Source: a virus. From it: 64,000 bases of DNA. A model generated the notes under the pieces. That model ran no database searches. It saw only the letters and a list, made by a program, of their open reading frames with translations, and had not been told where the DNA came from. The DNA lies in IMG/VR virus record IMGVR_UViG_3300045988_100207. One strand, written 5' to 3'. Each line of letters begins with the position of its first letter. The first letter of the stretch is position 1. A program made the position numbers and the translations under genes. Positions 4,501 through 64,000 of the stretch are shown one piece after another.

Positions 4501-5281
4501 TTTTCTTGTATCAATATGGAAAACTACGACAGACGGTAAGCCTTACATATCTTTTGCTGGATTTGACTGCGAGATTAATGGTGTACAAGGCACTCTTGGC
4601 ACATCATCTGGTGTAATCATAGATAAAGATGGCAATTTGGTGAATCCAGATAATCCAAGTGATAGACTGGTTACTATTTTTCAGAGAAAAAACGAGGGAG
4701 ATGAAGTTGTAATCAATTCCCCAGTCTTAGCTAAACCTTTGGATGCAGAAACATTTGCAAATGCCTATCATATTAATTTCATGGGTCAGAATAGAGGTGT
4801 CAGGGATGTAGATAATGATTTCTTTATTGCTGATACCCAAGATACACCAGGAGTTGACTTTGCTGAGGTGTTCTTCAATATGCAGAAGCTATGCTTTAAT
4901 GCCGCTGCAGGAAACTATATGATAATAGGCTGCCTCTTTTACGGCTATACAGAGGATAATTTTCAAAAGGGATTCAGAGGTAAATACGAGAGACTTTGTG
5001 AGAAAGAGTTTGGTGCAAAATTTGTCAATCTGAGACAATACATGTTAACACAAGCTCATCTGGCTTGTGGAAGAACTTTGTCACAAGAAGATAAAGATAT
5101 GATAAAAACGGGGCAATTACCTCCTTATCTTGGCAATGTTCATCTTAATGAATTGGGACAAGAATTAGCTTCAAATCTTGTAGCCGAAAGATGTTATGAA
5201 TTAGGTTGGATAAAGAACAAGCCTAATTACTATGATGTTGTAGCAACTCGCACAAGGTTGGAGACTGATGGTACTATTTAA
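1565..5281 (+). CDS. tail fibre / receptor-binding protein with collagen-like repeats and a possible C-terminal SGNH/GDSL-type esterase domain
   Basis: 1,238-aa ORF with Gly-X-Y runs (GPQGIQGEQGLSGLNG; GAKGEQGNKGEKGDKGDQGEIGPQGNSG). The C-terminal part carries ISGDSVAG, FMGQNRG and GNVHLNELG strings. Confidence 0.85.
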   Translation: MPTFRQDNKLGDSVPLIKTPDIGDKQVTERKLADGSVTSSKLSTEIANMLSLLTTRISAFKVADNLSSLPTEENTIGWLVDNHLYVYVGNGSTPESGMYQDCGELRGPQGIQGEQGLSGLNGKSAYDIWTEQPGNEDKSEIDFLEFTRGSKGDKGDQGERGYDISNIEQIVKSTEDGGKNIIRVTRSDGWSKVFEIFNGSKGSKGDKGTSIVKLEQTRKTTESSGLNTIEATLGDGTKESFEIYNGAKGEQGNKGEKGDKGDQGEIGPQGNSGIADASNKTLVNDAITGGETDFLSAEVGKLGILTYDCSKGGTVTHTTLQDAINSVPTTFQKVGLTITYKSGNTIYRYTLKANTWSADPANWFSVEDKLNDLETKAVSFIEKKGAVSARTGAIQEAYLTYRYVEIDVSQIRKLRLKGKNTNGALGYAVFDAEDNYIKAEGDTYNLSTFSDLDITFSDEAKKLRVCYDVNGVKENQKINILETKNDSLTDVINQSAKQSFSLGSIADTIKGKFINSSGVLSDNQSYDTKYFAVKKGDKVQIENYVKGNTGNSPISFVLNKEVLLHTSSVLNINAANSTNYVAAPQDCLCYIPRYNSSDSGEAIVNIIHSSLVDFVEDVQKDNISDIALIKDNSLSLDNRYQYKVGKRIVNGILVAGNTLTFYDDTFYKAKKGEVLSFKDVYNSNISIDLVSIYSNATEDSYIKSLYVIKANSTQSKQSDVRIEIPQDCFFRIATASNTQAECPLKVYRTVPLYDVVSAVNKELNGFEDTYKEEKTIQIPLVVETNHISKYYKCSDKCLIICDDFTHNNNVLRYHTIKDDSASIQTINIGVRGHFEYTPPQNAKYFSIKLTERLDSETGKVKVIVPSNFYYTELGEADGAAAKPIVISGDSVAGNLQSKFVSTLINGETSIFGKAVGSEGPWSTMMRMGWAPCMVFPFTIPASNKYGVNVDMICNMHYKPAIKADGTSGFTITDRMTQVDFLVSIWKTTTDGKPYISFAGFDCEINGVQGTLGTSSGVIIDKDGNLVNPDNPSDRLVTIFQRKNEGDEVVINSPVLAKPLDAETFANAYHINFMGQNRGVRDVDNDFFIADTQDTPGVDFAEVFFNMQKLCFNAAAGNYMIIGCLFYGYTEDNFQKGFRGKYERLCEKEFGAKFVNLRQYMLTQAHLACGRTLSQEDKDMIKTGQLPPYLGNVHLNELGQELASNLVAERCYELGWIKNKPNYYDVVATRTRLETDGTI
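1883..2383 (+). repeat. collagen-like Gly-X-Y repeat region inside the tail fibre
   Basis: Four separate G-X-Y runs are visible in the translation, interrupted by short beta-like segments that are themselves duplicated (VFEIFNGSKGSKGDKG / SFEIYNGAKGEQG). Confidence 0.8.
4200..5278 (+). other. candidate SGNH/GDSL hydrolase-like domain of the tail fibre
   Basis: GDS (block I-like) at about nt 4219-4236, GxN (FMGQNRG) and an HLN string near the C-terminus. Called by motif only. Confidence 0.35.
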
Positions 5282-24800: not shown

Positions 24801-27689
24801 CGCTGCATCAAGGGCTTGCTCTGCGTTGCGAAGATTGCGCAACTCATCAACTACCACGCCGCTATCCGGGTTGTCCGTTCCCAGACTATGCTCCTCGGCA
24901 ACCGTCTTACCTTGGCTGGCAGACTGGTCTGCGTGTGGCCTCCAGCTAGGGAAAAGCTCATCTTCGAGTGCTCTCTTCACATGATAGAAGATTCTGTTCT
25001 CCTCATCAGTACGCTTCATCGGGTCCTTGCGCATGATTTTGTCAATATCAATAACAATGCTTCCTTCTTTACCAAGAAGTTCTTTGATAGAAGCCATGAA
25101 GTTATTAGTATAACCTTTGCTTTCTGATCTGAGGTAGCCAAGCAAACCGTTCTTATCTGCATACTTCGTCCAATCAAGATAGAGCGCACTCTTCTGGTTG
25201 TGCAAGTCATTAATCAGTCGGGCATTATTCGGGTCTGTAATATCCTTATTCTCGTCATATCCGTTTTCTTTAAGGAATCTAAACGCTAGATTAGTGACAG
25301 TTCCATCATCATCTATGAACTGCATATCCTTCATCCTTGCGTAGCCCATCAGCGACATCATATCGTCATTATCACGATAAAGCTTCTGCTTGTAAAGAAT
25401 AGCTCTGCGTTCATCGGCATTCTTATAAGATGTACGTGTAAGCAGCGTTCCATTCTTTGTGTATTCAAGAATCTGCTTATTCTTCACGTCGTTCACGCTT
25501 CGGTAGCTTTTGCCTCTTGTCGTGTTAAACAGTCCCATGGCCGCATTCACCTTCTCTTTGGTGCTCTGAGAAACGTCAGGGTCGTTCATGAAATCCGTGT
25601 AAGCAGTCTTATACTTCGGATCTCTTGGTGCTGTCTTCGATGCACGGTCCACCTTCACGAAAGCATCCATCAGATTCTTGCCAGATGCAGAAGAAATCAA
25701 TTCATTCTTCTCGTCAGGAGTCAGACGAATATCCACGGCAATAGGAGAGCCATTGGCATTCTTTCCAATCACGAAATTACCACCGCTATTATGAGTAAGA
25801 TGATGCAGAATATTGCCCATCTTCACGAAGTTACTAGACTCGCCAGCCTTGAATGCGCCAACCATCACAACATCTTCCAGCCAAGTGCCGAATGAAATAT
25901 CCTTATCACCGGTCACGTTGTCGGCAACCATCATGGTTCCAGCCTCAACGCCCAGTCCGGCGGCCGTAGCACCAAACTTCTGCGCGCCATGAAGCAACCG
26001 CTCGCCAGTACTCTTCTCCATACCTGTAATACCGAACTTGGAAACCCAAGGAGACATGATTGCGCCCGAAACTCCAAACATCGCACCCGTTACCGCACCA
26101 TGCTCAGCACCTTTCAGACCAGCCTCACCGATAGCCTGCAGCGAAGTATCATCGCCAGTAGAAGCCTGATTCAAAGCAGTAGTCACACCCGAATATCCTG
26201 CAAGGTTCAGCGCACCTGTTGCCGTTCTGGTTCCCAATCCCGACATGATTTTCTGTGCCGTAGTCATGTTGGCCACCTTGAAAGCCATCTGCTGGGCGGT
26301 AAGCTTCTGTGCTGCCTTCATCACGCCAGCCTTCACCAGTCCGTTAGTCAGAACTCGGGTTCCAGTATTCACGGCAGCACTTGCGCCGGCACCGATTACG
26401 GCGAGCGGACCAGAATCAGCAGCCATGTTTACTGCAGTAGAAGCGAATCTCGTACCGATTCCCGAGCGATAGGTTTCATCCTTGTGTCCGGCAACCTTCT
26501 GAATCTCCGCATCACCATCTGCAATGGCAATACCTTCCTGCAATCTCTGTCTTGTATCTCTAGACATAACAGATGGAGCCACCACCATACCGATAATAGA
26601 GTTACTGAGGTTCTTGACAATATAGTCAAGCGCACCATGAGGCATGATTTCCTCCTGGTTGCGCATCGTCAGAGCCTTCTGAGCATAGTTCATAATCTCT
26701 GGAGTAACGTATTTGTCCACGTATTCCTCTACACTCATGTTCAGTTTCTCTGCGCTCTCGGCAATATGGCGCTGCATTCCCTTCTGCGAATAAATCTCGT
26801 TGATTTTGCTGCTCAGATTGTTCATCAGAACGTTCTGTCGGTTCACTTGCTCCTGTGTCTGTGCATCACGGAAAGCCTGTTCCTTTACTGACTGAGGCGC
26901 ATAGATGCCGCCCATCTTGTCAAGGTTCTGCTGATACTGCTGACGTGTCAATTCCTGTGCCTCATTCATGGAAGAATCTACCAGTTCGAGCAGATCATTA
27001 CCCAAAATACCTTTGGACTGGCCGTCATTTCTTACGAACTTGTTACCCTCCACCTCATACTGGGCGAATGCTCTAGCATCGTCCTCTCTCTGCTGCTTGG
27101 CTCTAGCCCTGCGAGCTTCAGGAGTAGAAAGCTGCTGCATCGTCTCGTTGAAGTTCTTGGCAGTAGGGGTTATTCTGCTTCTGCTGATAGGGGTAGCTCT
27201 CTGCTGCTCCTGACGTGCTGACTGCTCTTGTGCTCTTTGCATGCGTGCGCGCGCATTACTAGCCTGCGCCTGCTGCATCGGGTTCATCTGGTCGTTACGC
27301 ATGTGCATCAACCGCCAGTTCTGCATGTAGTCTGTACCAGAAGTAGTAGCCGTTCTAGGCTGCTGAGCCTTCTGCTGCCTTGGCTTCCGATACTGAGCTG
27401 CGACTTCCTGCGCTCTCTGCTTCATCGTCAGCTTCTTGACAGGCTGAACTGGCTTCTGCTGCTGAGGCTTCGGATTTACTGCGTGAAGTCCGAGTCGCTG
27501 CGCAAACTCCTCATACGAACTACTGGAAACAGCACCGTCTGCATGAAGCGCATCATAGAGCTGCTTTCTGTTATGATAGCCCTGCTTGCCAGGCGCATAC
27601 ACGAACTGTCTGAAATGTTCTCTAGTTCCCGATACTGCGCCATCGGCTTTCAAGGCGTTATAAAGTTGGTCAAATTTATCTCCAGCCAT
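9882..27689 (-). CDS. giant multidomain (polyvalent, DarB-like) protein, 5,935 aa
   Basis: One uninterrupted 17,808-nt ORF. Motifs read in the translation: ParB-like, EPSAGNG + NPPF (N6A methyltransferase), GDMTGIGKGRQ / DESH / SAT / QMRGRIDRTGQ (SF2, strawberry-notch-like helicase), HELIH, HEVVGH. Confidence 0.95.
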   Translation of the reverse strand: MAGDKFDQLYNALKADGAVSGTREHFRQFVYAPGKQGYHNRKQLYDALHADGAVSSSSYEEFAQRLGLHAVNPKPQQQKPVQPVKKLTMKQRAQEVAAQYRKPRQQKAQQPRTATTSGTDYMQNWRLMHMRNDQMNPMQQAQASNARARMQRAQEQSARQEQQRATPISRSRITPTAKNFNETMQQLSTPEARRARAKQQREDDARAFAQYEVEGNKFVRNDGQSKGILGNDLLELVDSSMNEAQELTRQQYQQNLDKMGGIYAPQSVKEQAFRDAQTQEQVNRQNVLMNNLSSKINEIYSQKGMQRHIAESAEKLNMSVEEYVDKYVTPEIMNYAQKALTMRNQEEIMPHGALDYIVKNLSNSIIGMVVAPSVMSRDTRQRLQEGIAIADGDAEIQKVAGHKDETYRSGIGTRFASTAVNMAADSGPLAVIGAGASAAVNTGTRVLTNGLVKAGVMKAAQKLTAQQMAFKVANMTTAQKIMSGLGTRTATGALNLAGYSGVTTALNQASTGDDTSLQAIGEAGLKGAEHGAVTGAMFGVSGAIMSPWVSKFGITGMEKSTGERLLHGAQKFGATAAGLGVEAGTMMVADNVTGDKDISFGTWLEDVVMVGAFKAGESSNFVKMGNILHHLTHNSGGNFVIGKNANGSPIAVDIRLTPDEKNELISSASGKNLMDAFVKVDRASKTAPRDPKYKTAYTDFMNDPDVSQSTKEKVNAAMGLFNTTRGKSYRSVNDVKNKQILEYTKNGTLLTRTSYKNADERRAILYKQKLYRDNDDMMSLMGYARMKDMQFIDDDGTVTNLAFRFLKENGYDENKDITDPNNARLINDLHNQKSALYLDWTKYADKNGLLGYLRSESKGYTNNFMASIKELLGKEGSIVIDIDKIMRKDPMKRTDEENRIFYHVKRALEDELFPSWRPHADQSASQGKTVAEEHSLGTDNPDSGVVVDELRNLRNAEQALDAAMDSNDVFKQTFEQLHQQGLTPAQIYDALIQNGLIQEELTPLAQYINANARVQGMQQATADAIEENVKSFISDWSYHGTLNGQAMNGEQALYVQDSNGRTLLVGSGDVAFDQTTGRAKEGSGDMLVCLDPNTKEMVYVKADEVTLLQNQPIDQFAAEYRQRLQMKNSEPYNQAAQEQAMQDAAKAQQEVQPKENKNEEISNNETDGKIRKGDNANSGSDGEAEENASEGDASVQQVEQPQQTRKFADGTDVPMATDSKGRPTPDYASMTPEQSAEILTEDFGENAEKVVDGQIKKAENALKDAEKMKVDYTAEPNDIMEQEALKNQTIEAAKKQLEHAQNIKKTMTAKKVAETVGSTEQTEGAHEAGSVAAQKFVNAPRLVGNKRTRMLPDGETKIKGHYEIVPAESLTPSHDVNNDYKKSEGFPTDAEGRTVNDRDYEHDKAAQQNTDQIARKYNGMAIEQVPVVSDEGIVYDGNGRTMAGQKAAKEGTDAEYINDLLENAENFGFTKEQIEQSGIEHPRLVLVTDERLPYDAATFAKFNRNEKKTQSNTEQAVAKAKTLTSDEVGAIVAEIEGNGSLDAFFNNSKAINDLVKTLVDKGIIGQNEVAQMMDSPERLSAQGREYVKNLLLGSIFKPETIRMLGIDSTVKNKAINAIRSVMDNMKLGEFSLRDEIDQAIQLLYEARQGGNKVDTLLRTPSMFGEDAAKRYPSISQMMALALEGKVSDFRDLLDEYNRIAKARNTGEGNMFEAAPTKEELINEYLNFKKWQDYGTGHSEIEGGHDVSGVEEPQQEASGGNEPAEAERRRVEEPDDLVNKELESRIEVTDEETETPSKNGPIMKQKILIDGDKEVIKVDEPNEKGEYTGSYYEYDGKKFGDLNGVLERIDDKTETSSEEMPKGTIYDRKKALLEEIEKGGIKKKDDAFQLLYKAEDLLDDYLGIPHDEWKPEPSRSNTIAGILSMARNALDRIKNEPVEPATEKQLSYLERLTSDDPTTRKLLEGVKLNKKQATWLIGNIKGLDDNLMRLHPDDIAETEKFIHDGIEYMKKLNGETSKEGGLPLLPKEEKPDPTFDPIAAAAQEFKKEHPLTEEEIMKADVDDLSKDIALDYLNGEVTDDLHRAIYESIFAKTRGQKTEPKVETPKAEPSADPMEGIKNAAEGFEKEKKAKTEKKPQQTADDAAVAASNKKVNDLWDMLKNAGKDEISASFVGLNSRQLEVLPKLVSAMAENAYLRIKRGMHNLEDVVKEMRKEFAPAAKLFKKEDVDAIYEQMMNIRYRDGEQRMSLKEWADYYEKTSPKHQENLVGDSKTAEERKLAEKKFIDTVNLQLGFKHKFNGIVELRKIAERVGLKDIKDTDLQELAETAIVKRARGIASSESTNDAVKFERIKTLYENQPSLNQRDSERVMKQQYSTPAPYAFLADMYVKGKGKVIDSALEPSAGNGMLTIGLPMDKVHVNDIDAQRLANLRRQGFKNVTSQDGTQPFADKDVDVVVTNPPFGSATTKEYDGYKISSLEGQMAINALESMKDDGRAAIIIGGKTEYAKNGSLNPKDKAFLGYLYSHYNVEDVINVDGGLYAKQGTSYPTRIILINGRRLNENAFPPVKDKARAETVKDYDELYKRIEDDILRGERMDSSIGEETRSAQPELDKQGATGTPKEGVRAGKRGGSEPDGKRESDLFDSTSVSGTHDDLENQRGTEPREDGRLSDGDSRTDGTGTEPSPSKEPTTGTNEQRGNGSGGAGRNDAQPNADEPASTGSGSGPRGQLQRVDKSVRGLSTEKVTYTPKSGNPFTLKAVMPADQQEAVNKNLEKLGDADQFLVDELGYNDKDDLYSHLAAEQVDSVALALQQAKKGNAFIIGDMTGIGKGRQAASLIRYAKKQGQVPVYFTKTAGLLSDVYRDLVDIGSPDLRPFVFGSAKEAAITDSDGNVVFALPSKSEVKRVLDYIEKNGKLPEEYDYVLTTYSQVSNGVYEFDENGARKEKKLAKGKTFGAAALSGQRRRDAIEKLMDNAYLILDESHTAGGNSGQGNYFQHIIQKAKNVTFFSATFAKRPDNMPIYALRTAMNEGGMKSSDLIDAVKRGGATLQEIMSQTLTQCGQMIRRERDMTGVTIDWKAIDDPERVQEQREQYDSIIGLFNDIINFQKKYVSSYVDERNDELAAIQSTMGIKKGTAALGIKNQPFASKAFNTVQQVLLSLKAKSAAERAIDYLKQGMKPVIALNNTNESQTGNLALGEEMDAPDLGTSLKKGLEGTLRYTQKDAKDNSESGYIKLSDLGDEAVEAYHELEKKIEQTSTGLSLSPIDVIKNELQKAGYKVGELTGRQTEFVYNDNGTVTKVKRADTDKKKLARDFNDGKIDALILNKSAATGISLHASSKYKDQKKRVMIVAQQQLDVNDEVQMRGRIDRTGQVARGAYEYVVSLIPAEQRLLMMFKAKLKSLDANTTSSQKSKFNEMEVADITNKYGDKVVREYMAEHLDLYARMADPFGWEKSHGDDLSRIDPQTLVASGGGVGDGEAGADASKLLGRMALLRVSEQEKMLQEIGELYANEIQRLNEMGENDLEITELPLKAKTLHKEVWKQGAEPGGDNAFADNTYIEKVNMAILKKPMKASEVKASQDGLTGGKTWDEYKTEKKAAVKEYFDQKIADETQKYEERAVKAATKAKEKYIKDAKKGQKDSGMSDEQIEKMAGYQYDNIYKQEKDKLNDVMKNLKAKAEMFERVLDTFDTNQTFALPTDMNNPNELSGFGNSYGRLIDIKITDNYSPNASSVSFATLDGRRKITFPIVGKVGAGEGNIDVISAIDNMTKQAISMGDSHLRVLNQNFDNWDRLTSNESRKNGYIVTGNLMQALVDSKDQGLGGQLVKYTTDTGEVKTGILMPDRFDPKGLTTDAPINSVAEKFELSSWHGGIDEVTSSDGEVKVKRIDNNRGYYYELRVPKSKAKGGKYFMDEDLLKLVNGNNFETRGNNMLAEFKPEQLKPVLDRLSKMGVKVQEERNTSEDEGTHFREDRGFQYSKTDTKDVKNSRIIPEDVDKNVSSQIEKKFDDRVDELTKDLSNEDKAEFNRHLDYYTSEFSRYKASEITYTLNGLEDEVRFWGRTFGNREKAGRTHLVQLKRAELEAAKTAARREMDYREVRAKALADGYGLRRGAKASFADISRLFEATNQAKEEGTRRLFEKARDIAKRLGVEFGGMDEGDERGNVGEATPERNINLFIDTLSRTYTNPKEAAHTILHELIHQATMGAIHLVKDGKAEGMLTPKQIEAVKTVIDIYNKVKADGRIVWEEGKRRNYGGKDEYEFAAEMAGGKQRKILGLSLGERIMNAVNELRNRGDNSLWQAVKNAWHKLFEISDKSKMDKALNDIMDDFNEKIDDIAMNDIEENGYAYRVTDKDELDRLNKEKTFRMYSGMQEVDGKLYSPMAAIIDGKRTDATEIGAWMGADERPDLVKNGKFQLVKTDKNPGAGEGPVPAAYNPYMHTSTSVMNDQFSGAYARGNIKVVEWEIPESEKTSGYHAEGAKNSVGLVPWTSGTVNSLLPKDRQRSVMLSRWRKAVRILPDEEVAEKIADQLRGTGLAIPWNVVTPNQLRELVKLGVPITTVEQGRQNPETKEKFLKQMAELEQEFPQAKFVNVKMTKDAFNVWGKDGGIKFRTDHGDGNYPTSSVESHIEKVVQKTGAKVNMVSSVDEITNKAAKAAIEEGRKITGWYDEKTGEVHLYMPNIHDRYTAEKTIWHEVVGHKGMSELFGDERFDKFLREVWYDLDKPENAALKKLVDEERKFNPLNIYDAIEEGIARLAEDGKGEPGFWNGIKNKVSDFLHEIGYRVAPNTKDVKYLLWLSKNLQKNPDDPYWKMRAEAVKYRLDHERMPAVVAHDGMFYGNDGKVRSMDNLTKAEWNEATDGEIHFRTTPSAGTALDRYHRSLDEHGYMFTESYMDNMLSLKKLMNAIVPDKKIEDIASSENPYILQNTMQGAMSDAAQMFERNVMKPLDKAMADVLDAFDGKKDDEKIRNFNLYMITKHGLERNREFFVRDFLRNMRMDEQKKQDADFLENSYYSDKEYLDNELKAGNIDLKEYYRQLDESIRNHFDADFEAGEHDYSGMHAIQEVTKSSDPYNDAEAIQSVMDSEAKMESIKKGAVKDYWDKVKAATQYSIDSDYKNGIISKELHGHVSNMFNWYVPLRKYDEATAEDTYGYITEQGDPKSYIGSTIMRARGHKYLSETNVLAQIGAMGNRAIKNGGMNAIRQAFARFARNNSGNNLITETSVWYEKDPVVNIVYERYPDIPEDATADEINQIVSDFNKDMKMKESQGMAYKVYRRDKIGYKFQRAENKSQHIVDVKIAGRTHTFIINGNPRAAQALNGLLENSGAKGIMKPLSSISRMMAQLCTSYNPEFVMRNIMRDAEFASSNVTSKEGARYGALWAKYYAQLGLYKGASNISFKDLSGTTGLGLFAKYRNGTLDMSDKVQRYFKEFMENGGETGWVQIKNMQDWTKEYKKDVKGERSKIDKGGAVLRDFFFGNLANINEVAENIARFATYCASRDSNRSIIRSVYDAKEVSTNFNRHGSGDAIKSFKNGEMTGGKAAARWTYGFTASYLRHCSMFFNAGIQSTNLLVKNLKNHPVGTSINMLAIPFALGALAALGNNVLIASEDEKDRKGVKDPYGELPDYVRRNNLCIYKGGGQFITIPLAIELRAFYGLGDLAAGLTFSPNVSGQKNPALDAVGCMSQLVPVMDYLGNSSAGKEPLNETIKAISPSALSPFVEWELNTDWKGAPIERRGDWNENSPAWQRAYRGVPDGYMAVNKWVNAQTNDVAKGNEDMLGNSFLDMVTNPSMLNHYIGGIGGGAATFTERAIGVIKHGSDTETKDIPFLRSLLYTPNEQSSLQRTKSKWYNYKDEMEKTMANVDRLKSKNVPIDKRITNIGEYFHFQNSKEAAKVRIIELAEKQMKRWKKLRDKSSDTESINFANQNIDRIMMDAVDELDRLE
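13614..13631 (-). other. zincin-like motif 2 (HEVVGH, aa 4687)
   Basis: KTIWHEVVGHKGMSELFG is read directly from the sequence. Confidence 0.45.
15105..15119 (-). other. zincin motif 1 (HELIH, aa 4191)
   Basis: AAHTILHELIHQATMG is read directly from the sequence. Confidence 0.5.
17490..19290 (-). other. SF2 helicase core of strawberry-notch type, aa ~2800-3400
   Basis: GDMTGIGKGRQ (aa 2819), ILDESH (aa 2976), FFSATF, QMRGRIDRTGQ (aa 3358). Confidence 0.7.
20000..20600 (-). other. N6-adenine DNA methyltransferase domain, aa ~2365-2560
   Basis: Motif I EPSAGNG (aa 2398, nt 20481-20498) and motif IV VVVTNPPFG (N at aa 2456, nt 20313-20324). Confidence 0.75.
23340..23625 (-). other. ParB/Srx-like domain, aa ~1355-1450
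   Basis: ESLTPSHDVNNDY (H at aa 1374) and IVYDGNGRTMAG (aa ~1433). Confidence 0.5.
25815..26603 (-). other. Gly/Ala-rich hydrophobic (glycine-zipper-like) region of the giant protein, aa ~363-625
   Basis: IIGMVVAPSV...LAVIGAGASAAV...GAVTGAMFGVSGAI...GATAAGLGVEAGTMMVA. Confidence 0.5.
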
Positions 27690-44047: not shown

Positions 44048-44090
44048 TGTGTTATCAATGTGTTATCACCTTGTAAAAAATGTGTTATCA
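44048..44090 (+). repeat. TGTGTTATCA x3 direct repeats at 11- and 22-bp spacing
   Basis: Copies at 44048-44057, 44059-44068 and 44081-44090, immediately upstream of ATG 44093. Confidence 0.8.
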
Positions 44091-44092
44091 AA

Positions 44093-45226
44093 ATGGCAAA
44101 AATTAATTTAAGTATTATTCACAATCGTTTGAAGCGAGCGACCTCAAAACATGAAGTTTCGGTAGAATTATGCTTTTGTGCCAAGCGTCAAAGGAAGTAC
44201 TTTTCCACAGGCGTAAAAGTGACAACTACACAATGGTCTGATGCGTCAAAGATGGTTATCAAGAGAAAAGATGCGGATGAACTGAATGAAATCATACAGG
44301 CATACCGCGCGAGAGCAAACGAAATCATCAGTAAGATGGTTAAGGAAGGCTGTTGTGACTTAAATGTGGTTATCTCACAGATGAATGGAGAAGACGAAGG
44401 AACTTCTTTTATCGAGTACTGCGAGAGAAGACGAAATGAGCGTAAGGTGTGCGAGCATACCAAGAAACGCTACGATGTCTTTATCAAATTCCTAAAAACA
44501 TGGGGAAAGATAAAGTCGTTCCAAGACTGCAATGTATCGAAGGTGCGTTCAATGGATGAGTATCTCCACAGACAGGATAAGGCTCAATGCACAATCTATG
44601 ACTATCACAAGTATCTCAAGTTGTTCATCAATGATGCGATGATAGACGGACTTATTGAGCAGAATCCTTATAAGTTTCTGCCATTCCATATTGGTAAGGG
44701 AGAAAAGCAGTATGTTGATTGTGTCACCGAAGAGCAGTTTGCTGCCATCAAGAAACTGAAACTCTCAACACCTCATATTCTCCATGCAAGAGATTTGTTC
44801 CTCTTCCAATGCTATACCGGACTTGCATACTCTGACCTTGCATCGTTCGATTATACTAACTGCGAGGAGATTGGCGGCAAGATGTTCTATCACGCTAAGA
44901 GAACGAAAACAGATACGGATTTCGTATTCCAACTTCTCAAACCTGCCCTGGAGATACTACAGAAGTATGACTTCAAGCTGCCTAGAATGACGAATCAGAA
45001 GTATAATGATTATCTGAAGGCGATCGGGCAGATGGTTGGCGTTGACAGGCTGCATACCCACATGGGTAGAGCGACTGCGGCAACCTTATTCCTGTCTAAG
45101 GGAATGCCTATCAACATTGTGGCAAGGGTGCTTGGGCACACTACCTTGCGCCAGACTACTAGATACGCACGTACATTAAATAAGGATGTACAATCTGCTT
45201 TCGATGCTCTCGAAGGAAAGATGTAA
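44093..45226 (+). CDS. int: tyrosine recombinase / phage integrase
   Basis: C-terminal catalytic pattern ...HARDLFLFQCYTGLAYSDL...HMGRATAATLFL...ARVLGHTTLRQTTRYAR. The track start at 44060 is GTG, so ATG 44093 is preferred. Confidence 0.9.
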   Translation: MAKINLSIIHNRLKRATSKHEVSVELCFCAKRQRKYFSTGVKVTTTQWSDASKMVIKRKDADELNEIIQAYRARANEIISKMVKEGCCDLNVVISQMNGEDEGTSFIEYCERRRNERKVCEHTKKRYDVFIKFLKTWGKIKSFQDCNVSKVRSMDEYLHRQDKAQCTIYDYHKYLKLFINDAMIDGLIEQNPYKFLPFHIGKGEKQYVDCVTEEQFAAIKKLKLSTPHILHARDLFLFQCYTGLAYSDLASFDYTNCEEIGGKMFYHAKRTKTDTDFVFQLLKPALEILQKYDFKLPRMTNQKYNDYLKAIGQMVGVDRLHTHMGRATAATLFLSKGMPINIVARVLGHTTLRQTTRYARTLNKDVQSAFDALEGKM

Positions 45227-48164: not shown

Positions 48165-48479
48165 ATGAAAAAGAATATCAGACAGAATTTCTTCAATCAT
48201 ATCAAGAAGGTACTTGATATAGTTGACAAGATGGGGGATGAGGCAAAGCATTTTCGATGCATCGTCCTCATGGGTGACAGAACCATTCCGAAGGCATACG
48301 CATTCATGCACGCATCGCCCGAAGACCTCAAAAATCTTATCTTGAACGCCATGCGTAATAGCGACCAGTTCACCTACGCTACAGCAAGGGCATTCGAGGA
48401 ATACGATAAGGAACTGAGAGAAAAAGAAGAAACTTTAAACAAAGATAAAAATGAAGAAAATCCTATTCAAGACACTTAA
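48165..48479 (+). CDS. hypothetical protein (104 aa)
   Basis: ATG MKKNIRQNFF downstream of the terminator. The track start at 48132 lies inside the hairpin. Confidence 0.6.
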   Translation: MKKNIRQNFFNHIKKVLDIVDKMGDEAKHFRCIVLMGDRTIPKAYAFMHASPEDLKNLILNAMRNSDQFTYATARAFEEYDKELREKEETLNKDKNEENPIQDT

Positions 48480-50451
48480 ACTGCGAAATTTCTGTGGCAT
48501 CCGTGCCGGAGTCTTCGATTTTGGAGAAGACCTAACCGTTATCTCGGGAGACAACGGAAGAGGCAAGAGCACTATCGGCAATGCCATCATGTACACATTA
48601 TTCGGTACTGATACCAACGGCATGCAGCTCGACATCAAAACCTTCGATGAGAATCACAATATTATCAAGGAGATAGAGCATTCATCCGAGTTGGTTATGT
48701 TGGTAGATGGTGATGAAATATCGTTCAAGCGAGTTCTGACCGATAAGTGGAAAGGTGATAAATGCACCAACACCTTCAAGTACTATGTTGATGGAGAATT
48801 GACTACCGCCGGAGATTTCAGCAACGTAGTTGACGGAATCTTCCAAGAAGACCCATTTGCGTGGTGCATCTGTCCTAATCTGTTCCTTGATATGGCTTGG
48901 CAGAATCAGCGTGCATTCCTTCAGTCGTTGGCAGGTGATATTTCTGCCGAAGACATCACGAAGGGCGAAGAAAAGTATGATTATCTTGTTGAACTTCTCA
49001 AACAGAAAGATATTGATGCCATCCTTCACCACCTTAAGCATAAGCGTACAGAAGTTCAGAAGGAACTCGATGCGGTCCCTATCAGACTTGCCGAACTCGA
49101 CAAGACCCTTCCACCAAAGCAGGATTGGGAGGCCATGGAGAAAGAAAAGGCTGAGCTGAAAGAAAAACTGGTGGAGATAGACAACAAGATTCAGCAGATT
49201 CGCACCGGTGGTGCAGACAGAGTTCGCCTTGACGCAATCAGAAAAAAGATTGAATTTGCCGAAAAGCGCAAGCGAATGATGGAGCAGGGCGCAGACAAGG
49301 AGTCTACCGATAACATGACCAAGCATCAAAGCGATGTTCTCAACGCCAACGCAGCCTTCAATAAGGCAGAATCTACGGTTAATAACCTCAAAGCCGTCAT
49401 GAGTGGCTATCCTACCACCGAGGTTCAGATAAACGCTCAGATTGAAGAGTGCAAGAATAAGGTTAGCGACTTAAACAAACGTAGCGATGAGATTGCCAAG
49501 CGCACTTGGGAATGGGATGATAAGGAAGGTTTCTGTCCTCATTGCGGTCAGGCTCTCCCTCTCGGTGAAGTTCAGCTCCTCAAACAGGAATCTCAGAACC
49601 GGTTCAACTCTCGCAAGGCAGAGGATATGAAGGAACTCAACAATGAGTTTGCCAAACTCCAAAGCGCATACACCGAACTAAACAAAGAGTTGGATAAACT
49701 GAATGATGATCGTCAGACCACCACAAACCAACTCGTCAAGGCTCATCAGGCGCTCAAAGATGCCGAAAAGCATAAGGCAGAAGTTGATGCAGATGTTCCA
49801 CGCACCTACGGGCAGATTCTTGCCTCTAAGGTGGAATATCAGCAGGTAGTGAATGAGATTGGTGAGTTGCAGGCAGAACTCGACAAACCATCAGATAACA
49901 ACGAGGATAGCGACAAGTTACTTCAAGCACTCGCTGAAGAGCGAAAGCCGCTCGCTGACAGATACGATGAAGTCCTCGAACTCCTCGCCTCAAAAGCATC
50001 TTACGACAACACAATGGCTCATATCGAAGCAGCGCAGAAGGATAAAGCCATCTTCCAGGAGCAGCTTGATGATATTGATGATAAACTCAACATCACCAAT
50101 GAGTTCTATCAGTTGTCTTGCAAGGCTCTCGAAGATAAGGTCAATCAGCACTTCCGTTTCGTAAAATGGAGTCTGTTCCTTCCAAAACTCGATGGTGAGA
50201 AGAAACCTTATTGCGAATGTTATCATAATGGTGTGCCTTACAGCCGCCTCAATGGTGCTGCCAAGGTGAATGCCGGAATCGACATCGCGCGCACTATCGG
50301 TCAGTTCTATGATGTATCGGTTCCTGTCGTGCTCGATGAATGCGAAAGTGTTAACCATCCGCTCAGCACAGGCGGTCAGCAAATCCGTCTGGTAGTATCG
50401 AAGGATGATAAACTAAAGGTTGAGTATTTCGCTCTGGCAACAATGGATTGA
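48451..50451 (+). CDS. Rad50/SbcC-like recombination ATPase (666 aa)
   Basis: P-loop SGDNGRGKST, long coiled coil with a CPHCGQ zinc-hook-like CxxC, and C-terminal VPVVLDECES (Walker B). Confidence 0.8.
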   Translation: MKKILFKTLKLRNFCGIRAGVFDFGEDLTVISGDNGRGKSTIGNAIMYTLFGTDTNGMQLDIKTFDENHNIIKEIEHSSELVMLVDGDEISFKRVLTDKWKGDKCTNTFKYYVDGELTTAGDFSNVVDGIFQEDPFAWCICPNLFLDMAWQNQRAFLQSLAGDISAEDITKGEEKYDYLVELLKQKDIDAILHHLKHKRTEVQKELDAVPIRLAELDKTLPPKQDWEAMEKEKAELKEKLVEIDNKIQQIRTGGADRVRLDAIRKKIEFAEKRKRMMEQGADKESTDNMTKHQSDVLNANAAFNKAESTVNNLKAVMSGYPTTEVQINAQIEECKNKVSDLNKRSDEIAKRTWEWDDKEGFCPHCGQALPLGEVQLLKQESQNRFNSRKAEDMKELNNEFAKLQSAYTELNKELDKLNDDRQTTTNQLVKAHQALKDAEKHKAEVDADVPRTYGQILASKVEYQQVVNEIGELQAELDKPSDNNEDSDKLLQALAEERKPLADRYDEVLELLASKASYDNTMAHIEAAQKDKAIFQEQLDDIDDKLNITNEFYQLSCKALEDKVNQHFRFVKWSLFLPKLDGEKKPYCECYHNGVPYSRLNGAAKVNAGIDIARTIGQFYDVSVPVVLDECESVNHPLSTGGQQIRLVVSKDDKLKVEYFALATMD

Positions 50452-50928: not shown

Positions 50929-51846
50929 ATGGCAGAAACAGCAGTAGCAAAGGCACAGCCTTCTCAGAAGGCAGTAGCGGTTAAAAACTTTCAGGCGGTA
51001 ATGAACAACAGTTATTACCAGACCTTGTTGCAGAATACAATGAAGGAGAATAAGGGAGCCTTCACCACAAGCTTGATGGAGTTGTTCACCTCTGATCCTC
51101 AGTTGATACAGTGTGACCCTAATGCACTCATGAGCGAGGCTGTAAAGGCTGCAGGATTACGCTTGCCTATCAACAAGCAGTTGGGGCAGGCATACATCGT
51201 AGTCTTCAACAAAAAAGATAAGAAGACTGATCAGATTATCCCAACTCCAACCCTCATCATCGGAACTAAGGGTTACATCAATCTCGCCCTTCGTACAAAC
51301 AAGTATGCAAACATCAATAAGGGAACTGTATATGAAGGTGAACTCCAAGGTTTTGACAAGGTAACTGGTGCGCTCGATATCAGCGGAGAAAAGACTTCCG
51401 ATGTGCCAGTTGGATATTTCGCATATTTCAAGCAGAAGTCTGGCTTCGAGAAGATTATGTACATGTCTCTTGATGAGGTATGTAAGTTTGCTAAGACCTA
51501 CGCTCCAACCGTCAAGTACTCAAAAATTACATGGCAGGAATTGAGAGATTTGGCTATCAAGCAATCCGTTGAAGGCACCGGTGGAGGTCTTGGATGGTTT
51601 GCAGGTTTTCAGGACATGGCAGAAAAAACGGTTCTTCGACAACTTCTTTCATCATGGGGTGAGCTTTCTGTTGATGCTGAGCAGATTATCAATGCCGATG
51701 AGCGACCTTCTGCCATCGTTCAGCGTGATGAGGAGTTTGCCGAGGCAAAGAACGTTATCACGGTCAATGCTGATACCGGCGAAGTTATGAATGCCAAAGA
51801 AGTACATGATGAGCAGCAACAGGCTCAAAAGTTTAGCTTGAGTTAA
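50929..51846 (+). CDS. recT: RecT-family single-strand annealing protein
   Basis: SEAVKAAGLRLPINKQLGQAYIVVFNKKD...GTKGYINLALRT pattern, with appropriate size and context. Confidence 0.75.
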   Translation: MAETAVAKAQPSQKAVAVKNFQAVMNNSYYQTLLQNTMKENKGAFTTSLMELFTSDPQLIQCDPNALMSEAVKAAGLRLPINKQLGQAYIVVFNKKDKKTDQIIPTPTLIIGTKGYINLALRTNKYANINKGTVYEGELQGFDKVTGALDISGEKTSDVPVGYFAYFKQKSGFEKIMYMSLDEVCKFAKTYAPTVKYSKITWQELRDLAIKQSVEGTGGGLGWFAGFQDMAEKTVLRQLLSSWGELSVDAEQIINADERPSAIVQRDEEFAEAKNVITVNADTGEVMNAKEVHDEQQQAQKFSLS

Positions 51847-59969: not shown

Positions 59970-60785
59970 ATGAATATAAAAAAGTCAGATATGGGAAATA
60001 AGATTAATGTAGCGGAAATCCTAAAGGATAAGCCGCAAGGAACTAAGTTGTACGACTTATTACGCAATATAGACGTAGAGTTAGATAAAGTCAACACAAC
60101 AGACGTTGGTACTTATATAGAATGTACATCAACTAATGAAGTAGGCAGTACTCTTTTGTTTGATTATTCAAAACTAGGTACAGAAAAATGCTGGCTTGCA
60201 GGCTTACGGATTCTCCTTCCTTCTAAGAATATGCGTGACTGGGGCAAGTTCGCCTGGAAGAAGGGCGATTTGCTTATCAATAGTTGTGGATTTCAGTGCA
60301 TTTTCAAAGAATGGGCATCTGATGATTATACAAAGTTCAACGGATGCTATTCTAATAGCAGGGATGGTTACGAAGACGTATCAAATGCAGAAACAGCTAA
60401 GTTTGACAAGTTAGAAAACAATATTGCCTATGGATATGTCAGAGAGATTGAAAGAAAATTAGGTGGCATACTAAACCTTGAGACTTTGGAGATTGAGAAG
60501 ACTCAGCCAGAGTTCAAGGATGGGGATATAGCTTTTGCCGACTATGGTAATAGACAAGATGTATTTATAGTATCAGATAAAACTGATTTATCAGAAGGTT
60601 ATAGCTCATTTATTTCTTTAGATTTAAGTAGTCTAACTTTGAGTATGGGCTGCAGAATTAGTTTCTTTAAGAAAGACCTTTGTAAACTTCGCCTTGCCAC
60701 TGACTCAGAGAAAAACAGCTCTTTGATGCTCTCGAAAAGGAAGGCAAAGCTTGGGATGCTGAGAAGAAACAGATTGTGGATTTGA
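59970..60785 (+). CDS. hypothetical protein, 5' part of an apparently frameshifted gene
   Basis: After the A5 run at 60711-60715, the last ~24 codons read as junk-like KNSSLMLSKRKAKLGMLRRNRLWI. Confidence 0.6.
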   Translation: MNIKKSDMGNKINVAEILKDKPQGTKLYDLLRNIDVELDKVNTTDVGTYIECTSTNEVGSTLLFDYSKLGTEKCWLAGLRILLPSKNMRDWGKFAWKKGDLLINSCGFQCIFKEWASDDYTKFNGCYSNSRDGYEDVSNAETAKFDKLENNIAYGYVREIERKLGGILNLETLEIEKTQPEFKDGDIAFADYGNRQDVFIVSDKTDLSEGYSSFISLDLSSLTLSMGCRISFFKKDLCKLRLATDSEKNSSLMLSKRKAKLGMLRRNRLWI

Positions 60786-61006
60786 AGCCAAAGGTTGAGC
60801 TGAATCCATTCGATAATGTGTTGGTTAGACATCAAAAAACTGAGGAATGGCGTGCAAATATATTTAGCCATACAGATAAGACAGATGAATATCTTGACTA
60901 TGTATGTGTTAATGGTAGATGGGAGTTCTGTATCCCTTACGAAGGCAACGAATCATTGTTAGGTACAACTAAAGATGTGGAGGTAAGTTATGGACGAAGC
61001 TTTTAA
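60704..61006 (+). pseudogene. 3' part of the same gene in the -1 frame
   Basis: The -1 frame opens right after TGA 60701-60703 and reads ...EKKQLFDALEKEGKAWDAEKKQIVDLKPKVELNPFDNVLVRHQ.... Confidence 0.5.
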
Positions 61007-61136
61007 GAAAGAACTTATAGAGCATTGTAAAAGGCAAATGCAACGCTTTGAGAGAATGGGAAGAACAGATTCTTTCGCATATAAAGAACATGCTGTTTTA
61101 CTTAGTTTTCTTGAACGTCCATATTTACATTTTTAA
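60990..61136 (+). CDS. possible small ORF (48 aa)
   Basis: MDEAFKKELIEHCKRQMQRFERMGR.... Below the track cutoff. Confidence 0.35.
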   Translation: MDEAFKKELIEHCKRQMQRFERMGRTDSFAYKEHAVLLSFLERPYLHF

Positions 61137-61149
61137 TACAACAATAGTT

Positions 61150-61715
61150 ATGATAGACGATAAGAAAATAGAAGGAGCCGCAAGAAGATACAGCAAAGTG
61201 ACGGATTGTGATAAGGAAGAAGCCTTATTAATTAGGGTGTCCAGTTCCATGTTCTCGTTTTTGATTATGTTTTAGCAACTTAGCACACTGTAAATCAGTA
61301 AATTAAGCACAAAATATAAGACAAATTTAACTATCAAAAAGTCTGATGTAGATTCGCACAAGATTATAGTTTATTTAGCGAATGATTATCAATGACTTAG
61401 ATGGTTATTACATTGTTTTTGATACTAAAAACTGGAACACAGAACTGGACACCCTACTTATTAATTGAAGAAGGCTTTAAGGAAGGTGCTGAGTGGGCTA
61501 TCAATGAATTCTTGAAGGACTTGTGGCATCAAACAAATAAGGAGCCAGAAGGATATGATGAATGGATATTGCTGCACTATAGTGTAGGCAACTATTATTC
61601 ATTAGCTCAAGTCAAAGAATTCAAGTCTTGGAAAGGATTTGTTGAGAATATGCCTATAGACGGGTGGTTCTATATTGATGATTTATTCTCAAAGGAAGGA
61701 GGTGGATGCAAATGA
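61150..61715 (+). pseudogene. 110-aa gene split by a 224-bp insertion
   Basis: Joining 61150-61232 to 61466-61715 restores one frame: ...TDCDKEEALLIEEGFKEGAEWAINEF.... Confidence 0.7.
61233..61456. mobile_element. MITE-like non-autonomous insertion (224 bp) with 15-bp perfect terminal inverted repeats and a 9-bp target duplication
   Basis: Left TIR TAGGGTGTCCAGTTC (61233-61247), right TIR GAACTGGACACCCTA (61442-61456). Direct repeat CTTATTAAT at 61224-61232 and 61457-61465. Confidence 0.75.
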
Positions 61716-61885
61716 CCGATGCAGAATTTAATAAGTTTGTGCTTATGCTAGAGAATGAAGCGTTTCGGTTTTCGAGAAGCCAAAACGAATTTAAGGAACA
61801 TCGAGTAGTGATAGAACAGTCTTTCAAGATAGGAGGGATGTTCATCCTTCGAGAGTTGGAAAAGTATTTTAATCAAAAGAAGTAA
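61712..61885 (+). CDS. possible small ORF (57 aa)
   Basis: ATGA overlap with the upstream gene. Below the track cutoff. Confidence 0.4.
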   Translation: MTDAEFNKFVLMLENEAFRFSRSQNEFKEHRVVIEQSFKIGGMFILRELEKYFNQKK

Positions 61886-61889
61886 GCGT

Positions 61890-62027
61890 ATGATATTATA
61901 TGAGAATCAATGTTTTGAGCTTTTAAAAGCTTTGTGTTATAGTGTCCCACAGAATCCAAATGTCGGTAGGTTTGAGATTGCAAACGTGATACTTGACACA
62001 TTACAAAAAATAAAAGATGCGGATTAA
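61890..62027 (+). CDS. possible small ORF (45 aa)
   Basis: Preceded by a TAAGCGTATG junction. Confidence 0.35.
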   Translation: MILYENQCFELLKALCYSVPQNPNVGRFEIANVILDTLQKIKDAD

Positions 62028-62054
62028 CAGCTTTCGGGCACAAATTTAAAGATA

Positions 62055-62231
62055 ATGACAAAGGAAGAAATATTGGAAAAGGCATCCGATTTTGAGGATG
62101 AAGATGAGTTTGTGAAGTGTAATAGATTGCCGTTCACTGAAGAATTGTGGCTTTTACATCAGCTAGTGTATATCGGCTTGTCTTGTACCTATACAGGTCG
62201 TGGTTATATAATTGAAAAACTTAAAGATTAG
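62055..62231 (+). CDS. possible small ORF (58 aa)
   Basis: Acidic N-terminus. Below the track cutoff. Confidence 0.4.
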   Translation: MTKEEILEKASDFEDEDEFVKCNRLPFTEELWLLHQLVYIGLSCTYTGRGYIIEKLKD

Positions 62232-62234
62232 TAA

Positions 62235-63011
62235 ATGGAAGCGAATGATTATTTGAAGGCTATGCAAGCTATGGACGAATTGGATAGACTTGTAACTAGT
62301 GTTTATCCGGATAAGTTCAAGTTGGTCTGCAAGAAGCATGGAATAGATGAATGCGAGGCGATGAACATGTATTCGTACTTGCAAAAGATGCATAAAGGTC
62401 AGTCTTGGTTAGTTAGATACAAGCCATTGGAATATCTAGAGCGTGTGTTAACACTAGCCAAAGAAGCTTATGCGTCTTACATGAACAACGGCTTGATTCT
62501 AAGTATGGTCAATTTTGGTGATAAGTATACAAGAATACTTGTAATATTTGAGAAAGATGGCGTAAGAAGCCAACAAGAATTTGACCTTAGAGAGCAAAGA
62601 ACATATGTTGATATAGCGGACTTTATTGGAAATGGTTACTCCATCGTATCTGTTATCCGTCAGTCTGACAATGTTGATAGCGAAAAGTTTGTTGGAGAAA
62701 AGGATGAACGAAGTCATAGTATTCCTATTTACGATGGTGATGTAATGCTTTGTTACGTGAATAAACCGGAATTTTGGAGTTCAGATTGGCGTAATAGCGG
62801 ACTTTATATTTGTGAGAGCGGCTCATATCATAGATTGCTATACACCCCGAATAAGGGGTACGTAAGACATGGAGAGCCTGATGTAGATGAAGACTTCACA
62901 CTTGATATTGGGGAAGAATCCTTCAGTAGTTATGTTATGACTTTAACCCAGTCTTGGTATAAGTTGGGTAATGTTCATGCAGGTATAGGCTTTTTGAAGG
63001 AGAAAGAATAG
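62235..63011 (+). CDS. hypothetical protein (258 aa)
   Basis: ATG ORF. Confidence 0.7.
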   Translation: MEANDYLKAMQAMDELDRLVTSVYPDKFKLVCKKHGIDECEAMNMYSYLQKMHKGQSWLVRYKPLEYLERVLTLAKEAYASYMNNGLILSMVNFGDKYTRILVIFEKDGVRSQQEFDLREQRTYVDIADFIGNGYSIVSVIRQSDNVDSEKFVGEKDERSHSIPIYDGDVMLCYVNKPEFWSSDWRNSGLYICESGSYHRLLYTPNKGYVRHGEPDVDEDFTLDIGEESFSSYVMTLTQSWYKLGNVHAGIGFLKEKE

Positions 63012-63032
63012 AAGAGTTAAAGGAGAGGAATA

Positions 63033-63299
63033 TCATTTCCCCTCCTTTGCCTTAATCTCCAACTCGATAGGCTTGCCGCAATGAGGGCAGATGATAGCCG
63101 GATGTGATAAGGTTTCACCATCAATAGCAAGAAAACTAGATGGCGAACAACCACAAATATTGGCTATTTGCTCTACTTTTGCAAACGAGATAGAACCATT
63201 ATTGATTTGTTGTGATAATGCCGATTGGGTTATACCTAACTTTTCGGCTACAGATGAAATGGTTTGTCCATGACTTCTAATTATTTTCTTTAAGTCCAT
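63033..63299 (-). CDS. XRE-family HTH regulator with a C-terminal CxxC ribbon (88 aa)
   Basis: QTISSVAEKLGITQSALSQQINNG and ICPHCGKPIELE. Confidence 0.8.
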   Translation of the reverse strand: MDLKKIIRSHGQTISSVAEKLGITQSALSQQINNGSISFAKVEQIANICGCSPSSFLAIDGETLSHPAIICPHCGKPIELEIKAKEGK

Positions 63300-63340
63300 A
63301 CCTTATTATATATAAGTGAATACTAATATTTATTTTGCTG

Positions 63341-63372
63341 CAAAGATAGCTTATTTCTTTTATACTACCAAA
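63341..63372 (-). promoter_or_regulatory. minus-strand promoter for the XRE gene
   Basis: CAAAGATA (63341-63348) and CAAA (63369-63372), spaced 20 nt apart. Confidence 0.55.
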
Positions 63373-63386
63373 GAAAAATAGTTAAA

Positions 63387-63496
63387 TATTAGAAACGGCT
63401 AATAAATAGCAAATAAATGTTTAGAAAAGCCTTATATGTGTTAAATAAGTGTTAATATTAGAAAATACTTATAGAAATGTTTGGTAGTATTAGAAA
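63387..63496. promoter_or_regulatory. three exact TATTAGAAA repeats (operator-like)
   Basis: Copies at 63387-63395, 63456-63464 and 63488-63496, plus a degenerate GTTTAGAAAA near 63419. Confidence 0.55.
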
Positions 63497-63511
63497 AAAC
63501 TACTATCTTTG
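63480..63511 (+). promoter_or_regulatory. plus-strand promoter
   Basis: TTTG at 63480-63483 and TATCTTTG at 63504-63511, spaced 20 nt apart. Confidence 0.55.
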
Positions 63512-63600
63512 CAATGTCTTTAAGAGATAAAGGCTTTAAAGTTTAACTATTAATTGCTGTTATGCAGCCGAGTCGGCACTCGTAAAACGGTATAGTGATT

Positions 63601-63930
63601 ATGGCTACTACATTAAGAAATACATTGAGTGAGGTAATGAAGCTTGCTTGGCAGTTCATCAAGAAGAACGGCTATACAATGAGCGAGGCTTTAAAGGTTG
63701 CTTGGATGAACATCAAGCTGAAGGGTCAGATGAAGAAGCGCATCGTGAAGTTCTACTTTCAGAAGGTTGATGGCAGCTTGCGTGAGGCATTCGGCACATT
63801 GAGCGAGAAGGTTATCCCAGCTACACAGGGTGCAGGTCGCAAGATGAATGACACTTGTCAAGTGTACTTCGATACCGAGAAAGAAGAATGGCGTTGCTTC
63901 AAGAAGGCAAACCTTATGAGAGTTGCATAA
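63601..63930 (+). CDS. hypothetical protein, DUF2693/SH3-like pattern (109 aa)
   Basis: RIVKFYFQKVDGSLREAFGTL...QVYFDTEKEEWRCFKKANL. The track start at 63595 is GTG. Confidence 0.6.
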   Translation: MATTLRNTLSEVMKLAWQFIKKNGYTMSEALKVAWMNIKLKGQMKKRIVKFYFQKVDGSLREAFGTLSEKVIPATQGAGRKMNDTCQVYFDTEKEEWRCFKKANLMRVA

Positions 63931-63962
63931 CAGATTTCTAACGATTTAAAAAGAAACTATAT

Positions 63963-64000
63963 ATGAGCGCAAAGATTATCGTGATGCAAGGCAACATGGT
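63963..64000 (+). CDS. 5' fragment of an ORF cut by the window edge
   Basis: ATG at 63963, open to the end of the window. Confidence 0.3.
   Translation, partial: MSAKIIVMQGNM

Follow-up and report, generated by a model that had tools for sequence, protein, structure and literature searches.

How did a 224-bp segment without coding capacity come to lie inside a phage gene, and what can it tell us about the host of that phage? The segment occupies positions 61233–61456 of the window, by which we mean the whole stretch of viral DNA analysed here (64,000 nt; IMG/VR record IMGVR_UViG_3300045988_100207). Its left TIR begins with TAGGGTGTCCAGTTC (61233–61247), the exact reverse complement of which is found at 61442–61456 (15/15 positions). 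The pairing runs on imperfectly to 30 nt (26/30, with matches at positions 1–15, 18–22 and 25–30), so that the left TIR can be drawn at 61233–61262 on the plus strand and the right TIR, from the inverted-repeat comparison with the left end, at 61427–61456 on the minus strand. When up to two mismatches are allowed, the 15-mer occurs at two places in the 64-kb window, and these are the two ends of the element; the expectation from shuffled sequences was 0.08, and two matches were reached in none of 100 shuffles. The element is directly flanked on both sides by a 9-bp target duplication, CTTATTAAT, with the left copy at 61224–61232 and the right copy, placed by direct-repeat comparison, at 61457–61465. 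The duplication appears to be 10 nt long because the first base of the element is also a T. The longest internal ORF of the element is 29 aa. A first-pass annotation made from the DNA alone had described perfect 15-bp TIRs, a 9-bp duplication and an element without an ORF, and each of these features is present. On the evidence set out below, we are highly confident that the segment is a non-coding MITE from Segatella that inserted into the phage gene and split it.

Removal of 233 bp, corresponding to the element plus one copy of the repeat, joins position 61232 to position 61466 in frame. The reconstructed product is a 110-aa protein (MIDDKK...EEALLIEEGFKEG...GGGCK, with the N-terminal stretch MIDDKKIEGAARRYSKVTDCDKEEALLIEEGFKEG) that belongs to phrog_32914, a family of unknown function, and is encoded among short, tightly packed plus-strand genes. 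The insertion point is codon 28. The 5′ part of the split gene (61150–61232, plus strand) comprises codons 1–27 plus 2 nt and starts where the intact homologues start, these also beginning with MIDDKK; it then runs into the MITE and reaches a stop codon at 61273–61275. The 3′ part (61466–61715, plus strand) extends from the remainder of codon 28 to the stop codon at 61713–61715. A chimeric 104-aa ORF (61401–61715, plus strand) opens at an ATG within the MITE, continues in frame across the right TIR and the adjoining copy of the duplication, and takes in the last 82 residues of the native protein. Judging from this reading frame, a truncated fusion product that starts within the MITE is possible.

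Uninterrupted versions of the gene exist in other phages. The in-frame fusion to a 110-aa protein, which had been proposed in the first-pass annotation from the window alone, is encoded as such in three loci retrieved by a protein-based scan (L123, L124 and L125), all with 100% identity over residues 1–110. The same annotation had recommended a search for the empty site in related phages, and the exact 27-nt uninterrupted junction GAAGAAGCCTTATTAATTGAAGAAGGC, with the target sequence in single copy, was recovered from 13 viral contigs in a scan of IMG/VR. In L125, the flanks are 99.9% identical to the window on both sides of the insertion. One of its BLAST segments ends at window position 61233 and the other starts at 61457, and the two overlap by 10 nt (CTTATTAATT), which corresponds to one 9-bp target copy plus the ambiguous T. 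The nearest relative in GenBank, MT835610, shares 90% identity over 67% of window positions 60000–64000 and has, at the corresponding position, a diverged homologue of 132 aa whose similarity crosses the insertion point. Because its version of the gene is divergent, MT835610 was rejected as an empty site, and it supports the continuity of the ORF at the protein level only. Given the empty-site contigs and a homologue that spans the junction, the insertion is therefore the derived state.

Two other readings of the locus can be weighed against these alleles. One holds that the segment belongs to the phage itself, for example as a regulatory hairpin, an intron or an intergenic spacer, and that the two ORFs are separate genes. 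As RNA, the element forms a very stable hairpin (−72.3 kcal/mol, z = −9.2), which favours native content, and the fold is this strong because the TIRs pair with each other. However, this reading is refuted by uninterrupted alleles in which the repeat is single and the 110-aa ORF intact, the same 224 bp is found at dozens of unrelated sites in bacterial chromosomes, and a search of the region against Rfam gave no family at threshold; native content thus has virtually no chance of being the correct description. A plant miRNA precursor model was matched at 24.8 bits, far short of its gathering score of 211; this Rfam match was caused by the hairpin and was rejected. The other reading reverses the polarity, taking the occupied state as ancestral and the empty alleles as products of precise excision, of which some DDE elements are capable. 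Against this, the gene is found widely in intact form and in diverged versions: 295 IMG/VR loci encode relatives of the reconstructed protein, and the best 80 of these share 38–100% identity with it, none being interrupted at the insertion point. The flanks of the 13 empty contigs differ among themselves by 0–3%, and the occupied allele was found on no IMG/VR contig searched. Excision would have had to leave one perfect copy of the target behind in each lineage, which is unlikely, and an ancestral occupied state seems to us barely conceivable.

With the chimeric 104-aa ORF as a tag, the occupied allele could be followed beyond IMG/VR. An identical ORF has been called on 16 metagenome contigs, including assemblies of ERR321317, ERR321321 and ERR209310, so that three or more human gut metagenome runs are represented; a 291-bp junction segment is identical in two of these assemblies. 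These contigs bear on the possibility that a Segatella genomic repeat was stitched into the phage contig during assembly. Such an artefact would be in keeping with the nature of the MITE and of the IS described below, both of which are high-copy repeats that break short-read assemblies and have many of their matches at contig ends. On the other hand, both flanks belong to the same phage gene and are bounded by a perfect 9-bp target duplication, which a chimeric join would not make, and the identical junction segment was assembled independently in other samples. We therefore regard an artefact as very improbable and return to a genuine insertion. Since the occupied allele is present on 16 contigs, the phage must be viable, or stably carried, without the intact gene, and a gene that is split in a persisting phage lineage is dispensable. 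The first-pass annotation had also considered the insertion to be recent; this is correct relative to the divergence of the phages, but the event is not private to the window, as the 16 contigs with the occupied allele demonstrate.

Other copies of the element are numerous. The pattern TAGGGTGTCCAGTTCYRTGTTC matched 14 IMG/VR contigs and 107 stretches in a bacterial collection with one genome per species. A blastn search with the MITE against the GenBank phage collection gave no match, and copies were found in IMG/VR and bacterial genomes only. Eight other viral contigs contain full copies, which are 98.7–100% identical to the copy in the window with the exception of one at 86.6%, and every one is set in different flanking DNA and bordered by an AT-rich 9-bp duplication of its own. 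Across the fetched loci there are at least 43 short elements, of which 38 are exactly 224 bp long, and 35 of the 43 have a perfect private 9-bp duplication that differs in sequence from copy to copy. The further copies that the first-pass annotation had suggested looking for thus occur at unrelated sites, each with a duplication of its own.

The copies fall into at least 11 subfamilies, distributed over phage contigs and Segatella/Prevotella genomes. Between the major groups, the cores are only ~42–59% identical, while the terminal ~30 bp and the length of 224 bp are conserved. A constant length despite diverged cores suggests a constraint on length or spacing. A short internal motif (ATGATTATCA-like) is also preserved across the subfamilies. 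The subfamily of the window copy has 15 members (≥93% identical). The window copy differs from the subfamily consensus by a single nucleotide and is identical to copies in another viral contig (L013) and in Prevotella sp. UMGS899 (L033). With a near-consensus copy in the window, identical copies elsewhere and ~40 near-identical copies of the IS, the MITE and the IS have been recently active.

Relatives of the window phage carry the same MITE elsewhere in the homologous region, which means that the small-gene region of this phage lineage has been struck repeatedly. At one homologous site, two independent insertions lie 1 bp apart in opposite orientations (L012 9247–9470 and L013 4953–5176), with the duplications TAAAAATAA and AAAAATAAC, respectively; the site looks like a target hot spot. 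A few genomic copies lack matching duplications and have the same mismatched flanks in the representatives of different species (L018 365–588 with L059 1303–1526, and L032 2118–2341 with L049 7504–7727). These pairs fit either old orthologous insertions or recombination between copies. A promoter and terminator scan based on the sigma-70 consensus returned one promoter-like site, on the minus strand within the MITE (61363–61392; TTGATA, an 18-nt spacer and TATAAT; 11/12 positions), which faces the left end. Bacteroidota promoters follow a different consensus from that of sigma-70. For this reason we judge the match to be uninformative, and its relevance in Bacteroidota is doubtful.

An element without a transposase gene needs a partner, and the first-pass annotation had proposed a search for an autonomous element with the same ends. 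Pairs of inward-facing TIRs fell into two size classes only, one of 224–234 bp and one of 1630–1680 bp, the latter mostly 1631–1632 bp. The larger class is an IS with ~40 near-identical copies in Segatella copri F3-48, of which L022 6198–7829 is representative. It has the ends TAGGGTGTCCAGTTCT(C/A)TGTTC..., is bordered by perfect 9-bp duplications and carries a single ORF of 478 aa. The first 22 nt are common to the ends of the IS and of the MITE, including the left TIR in the window. A comparison of 74 distinct MITE and IS insertion sites revealed one shared target profile, N-W-W-A-W-T-W-R-N, in which position 4 is A at 86% of the MITE sites and 74% of the IS sites, and position 6 is T at 75% and 74%, respectively. 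The target in the window conforms to this profile. Both elements occur together in S. copri F3-48 and S. sinensis CLA-AA-H174; in several other genomes, MITE copies alone or IS ends alone were seen, as judged by exact 22-mer matches with one genome per species. The segment in the window accordingly has a series of MITE features: it is shorter than ~600 bp, has TIRs and a fixed-length duplication but no transposase gene, is present as dispersed copies, is polymorphic at its insertion site, and shares its termini with an autonomous element in the same hosts.

The IS is among the highest-copy repeats of S. copri and causes assembly breaks; its matches are often located at the ends of contigs, and many contigs measure exactly 1631–1632 bp. 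Two viral contigs, L005 (3626–3720) and L013 (1–107), end inside a full-length IS, of which they contain the right end and part of the interior. In these phages, the IS is thus located within or beside the phage genome, and L005 is related to the window at 36.1–39.8 kb.

The MITE is not an internal-deletion derivative of the IS. This origin was rejected as only the termini align; the interior of the MITE cannot be aligned to the IS, and therefore the ends alone are shared. The unrelated interior could also be taken to mean that another transposase moved the MITE, and that the 1.63-kb element shares its termini by ancestry or has nothing to do with the movement. Variant copies of the IS exist as well: one in L098 is 1680 bp long, and another (L119 5021–6652) diverges in its subterminal sequence and has ~74% core identity, so that the partner may have been any of several variants. 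Against a different mover stand the restriction of these ends to the two size classes, with no other ORF-bearing element with TAGGGTGTCCAGTTC termini seen, and the equality of duplication length and target profile between the MITE and the IS. We consider another mover improbable, and the predicted DDE-type transposase of 478 aa encoded by the 1631–1632-bp IS is the most likely agent to have mobilised the MITE in trans.

Under this most likely scenario, the transposase would bind and synapse both ends of the MITE and link them to an AT-rich target of the above profile, here CTTATTAAT, cut with a 9-bp stagger, and repair of the gaps would generate the 9-bp duplication. The underlying chemistry could be of the cut-and-paste or of the copy-in type. 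The insertion would probably have taken place while the phage DNA resided in a transposase-expressing Segatella cell, most plausibly as a prophage in a lysogen.

The partner transposase has escaped annotation by Pfam, NCBIfam and PGAP. The 478-aa protein had no hit in Pfam, its only NCBIfam hits fell far short of the cut-off (IS6 at 27 bits against 125, with ISH6 and IS5 scoring lower), 41 members of its family gave no family-level match in either, and sequence and profile searches of the PDB returned nothing. It does have many homologues: clustering at 90% left 720 of them, and a search of 1.84 billion representatives at E ≤ 1e-3 gave 2,032 clusters at 50% identity. Where these are named, the name is "hypothetical protein", with the single exception of a UniRef entry labelled "Transposase". 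The first-pass annotation had listed IS4, IS1 and IS903-like elements as examples of compatible families, and here it was mistaken, as the transposase matches none of those models: IS4 and IS1 were rejected for lack of any DDE_Tnp_1, IS1 or IS4 match, and IS5-IS903 because the IS5_2 score is 14 bits against a cut-off of 140.

Weak HMM similarity recurred for two families only, IS6 (18 of the 30 members, best E = 1.6e-8) and ISH6 (10 of 30, best E = 9e-4). It extends over the HTH region and the beginning of the DDE core and amounts to ~27 bits against cut-offs of 125 and 240. IS6 was rejected on the grounds that the NF033587 match (27 bits vs 125) is confined to the N-terminal part, that the protein is 478 aa long and that the duplication is 9 bp; IS6 transposases are ~230 aa, half the length of the protein considered here, produce an 8-bp duplication and lack a long insertion domain. 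IS256 was likewise rejected, with no match to Transposase_mut (PF00872) or NF033543 at E ≤ 1 in 30 plus 10 members. By signature, hAT was also rejected, given that no dimerisation or BED domain was detected in Pfam and that the duplication is 9 bp; that of hAT elements is 8 bp.

Structure prediction placed the protein more informatively. An alignment of 87 sequences, reaching down to 23% identity, has nine invariant residues (W121, D146, D213, D232, H235, W293, G343, E400 and K407), and the AlphaFold model built from it has a pLDDT of 93.1 and a pTM of 0.83. The model begins with an N-terminal coiled coil, followed by helical segments that probably bind DNA, an RNase-H-like core (beta1-beta2-beta3-alpha-beta4-alpha-beta5) and a long all-alpha insertion. 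D146 lies on beta-1 (strand 141–151), D213 just after beta-4 (strand 210–212) and E400 in a helix (397–409). With conserved D, D and E on the expected structural elements, the modelled protein is what a DDE (RNase-H-fold) transposase should look like. In a Foldseek search of the PDB at E ≤ 0.001, only DDE transposases and recombinases were returned, with Hermes first (E = 1.6e-7, TM 0.40–0.43) and ISCth4 second (E = 1.8e-5, TM ~0.26–0.36); RAG1 followed at E = 4e-3. One Hermes chain aligned with an rmsd of 5.9 over 317 columns, the sequence identity being 12–14%. An earlier, shallower model gave the same ranking.

Hermes and the other eukaryotic hAT transposases resemble the modelled protein in that a large all-alpha insertion interrupts the RNase-H core after the second D and before the E. 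They differ in that the partner IS is bacterial and that its transposase has no detected hAT dimerisation or BED domains. The IS256 family, represented by ISCth4, is also made up of single-ORF bacterial IS of similar size, and its duplications are 8–9 bp; its likeness to the partner transposase is at the level of the fold only. Given the missing family signatures and the predicted structure, the fitting description of the partner is an unclassified DDE IS whose fold is hAT/IS256-like.

Distant relatives of the IS are widespread. A tblastn search of plasmids retrieved homologues with 21–27% identity in Persicobacter, Nostoc, Calothrix, Gloeothece and Thiodictyon, many of them multi-copy, and every annotated one is a "hypothetical protein". 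The Persicobacter copy (L215 925–2419) is 1495 bp long with TAGCCTGTCG... inverted repeats, and its flanks match only partly. The Calothrix copy (L216 853–2531) is 1679 bp long, has the ends (C)TAGGCTGTTGAC... and is bordered by a perfect 9-bp duplication, GACTGTGCC, so that beyond Segatella the 9-bp duplication is documented in the one Calothrix copy examined. Termini like TAGGGTGT (TAGSSTGT) recur across three phyla, and the family architecture is one of 1.5–1.7-kb elements with TAG(G/C)(G/C)TGT termini. The ~2,000 clusters at 50% identity span gut Bacteroidales, Persicobacter, Cyanobacteria and Thiodictyon. These elements may also resemble unclassified cyanobacterial orphan groups placed under "ISNCY" in ISfinder, such as IS892 of Anabaena, which we take as no more than a lead. 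IS892 is ~1.7 kb long and has the ends CTAG.

It is possible, though we would sooner doubt than assert it, that the partner represents a cross-phylum IS family still without a formal description or a model and structurally nearest to hAT. If this were true, it would be a candidate prokaryotic counterpart of the hAT-type architecture, and behind the phage MITE would stand a highly active transposon family, so far overlooked, in a major bacterium of the human gut. With the family modelled, thousands of gut-metagenome proteins would be better annotated, and the predicted hAT/IS256-like fold would be of some evolutionary interest.

The distribution of the MITE and the IS also answers the second part of our question. 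Almost all genomic matches are in Segatella copri, S. sinensis, uncultured Prevotella MAGs, P. pectinovora and Hoylesella. The few matches outside these taxa, in a Phocaeicola MAG, a Bacteroides MAG and a 1.4-kb "Coriobacteriaceae" contig, are most simply put down to binning noise, contamination or occasional transfer. The suggestion in the first-pass annotation that the element might tag the host was thus a useful one, as the genomic copies come, with few exceptions, from the Segatella copri complex or Prevotella. Being essentially confined to the S. copri complex and close Prevotella, the MITE and the IS allow a host to be assigned without cultivation, and they point to a phage that would infect a member of the S. 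copri complex or a close Prevotella. A host would thereby be found for an otherwise host-less family of 60–125-kb phage contigs from the human gut.

By its gene content, the window phage appears to be of the temperate type, with a predicted tyrosine integrase (44060–45226), RecT (50929–51846) and a repressor-like HTH gene (63033–63299, minus strand). A tail fibre gene (1565–5281) and an SbcC-like gene (48451–50451) were also recognised. No prophage copy of the window was found in the fetched Segatella loci, and the RecT-carrying contigs, all of ≤200 kb, include none that shows the phage integrated in a Segatella chromosome; the proposed prophage route and the host assignment accordingly draw on the integrase and on the distribution of the MITE and the IS. 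Elsewhere in the window, a single ORF of 5,935 aa (9882–27689, minus strand) combines ddrB-ParB, AAA_34, Strawberry-notch-type helicase C-terminal and LPD38 domains, a set that we take to match the "large polyvalent proteins" of phages and conjugative elements.

MITEs shared between phages and their hosts ("vMITEs") have been surveyed previously and proposed as a means of host assignment (Nucleic Acids Research, 2024; PMC11602168). The survey described 41 vMITEs in Prevotella phages and assigned a further 17 and 83 viral sequences to Prevotella; such MITEs are rare, and in earlier work their frequency was of the order of 0.2% of viruses (PMC11602168). The present case is less unusual than the first-pass annotation implied, since MITEs of Prevotella phages had already been surveyed (PMC11602168). 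The element described here resembles these vMITEs in being a small non-coding element with TIRs that is near-identical in phage and host and names the host genus. It resembles the classical pairs of IS and MITE in its termini and duplication length, shared with an autonomous element, in its lack of a transposase gene, in its multi-copy nature and in the logic of mobilisation in trans; it differs from them in that the partner lies outside the modelled families and in that the MITE is no simple internal deletion of the IS. The insertion is thus an ordinary kind of event, whose main use is to name the host of the phage; beyond the survey, the locus provides an empty site, identifies the gene that was disrupted, and reveals both an autonomous partner and a target preference.
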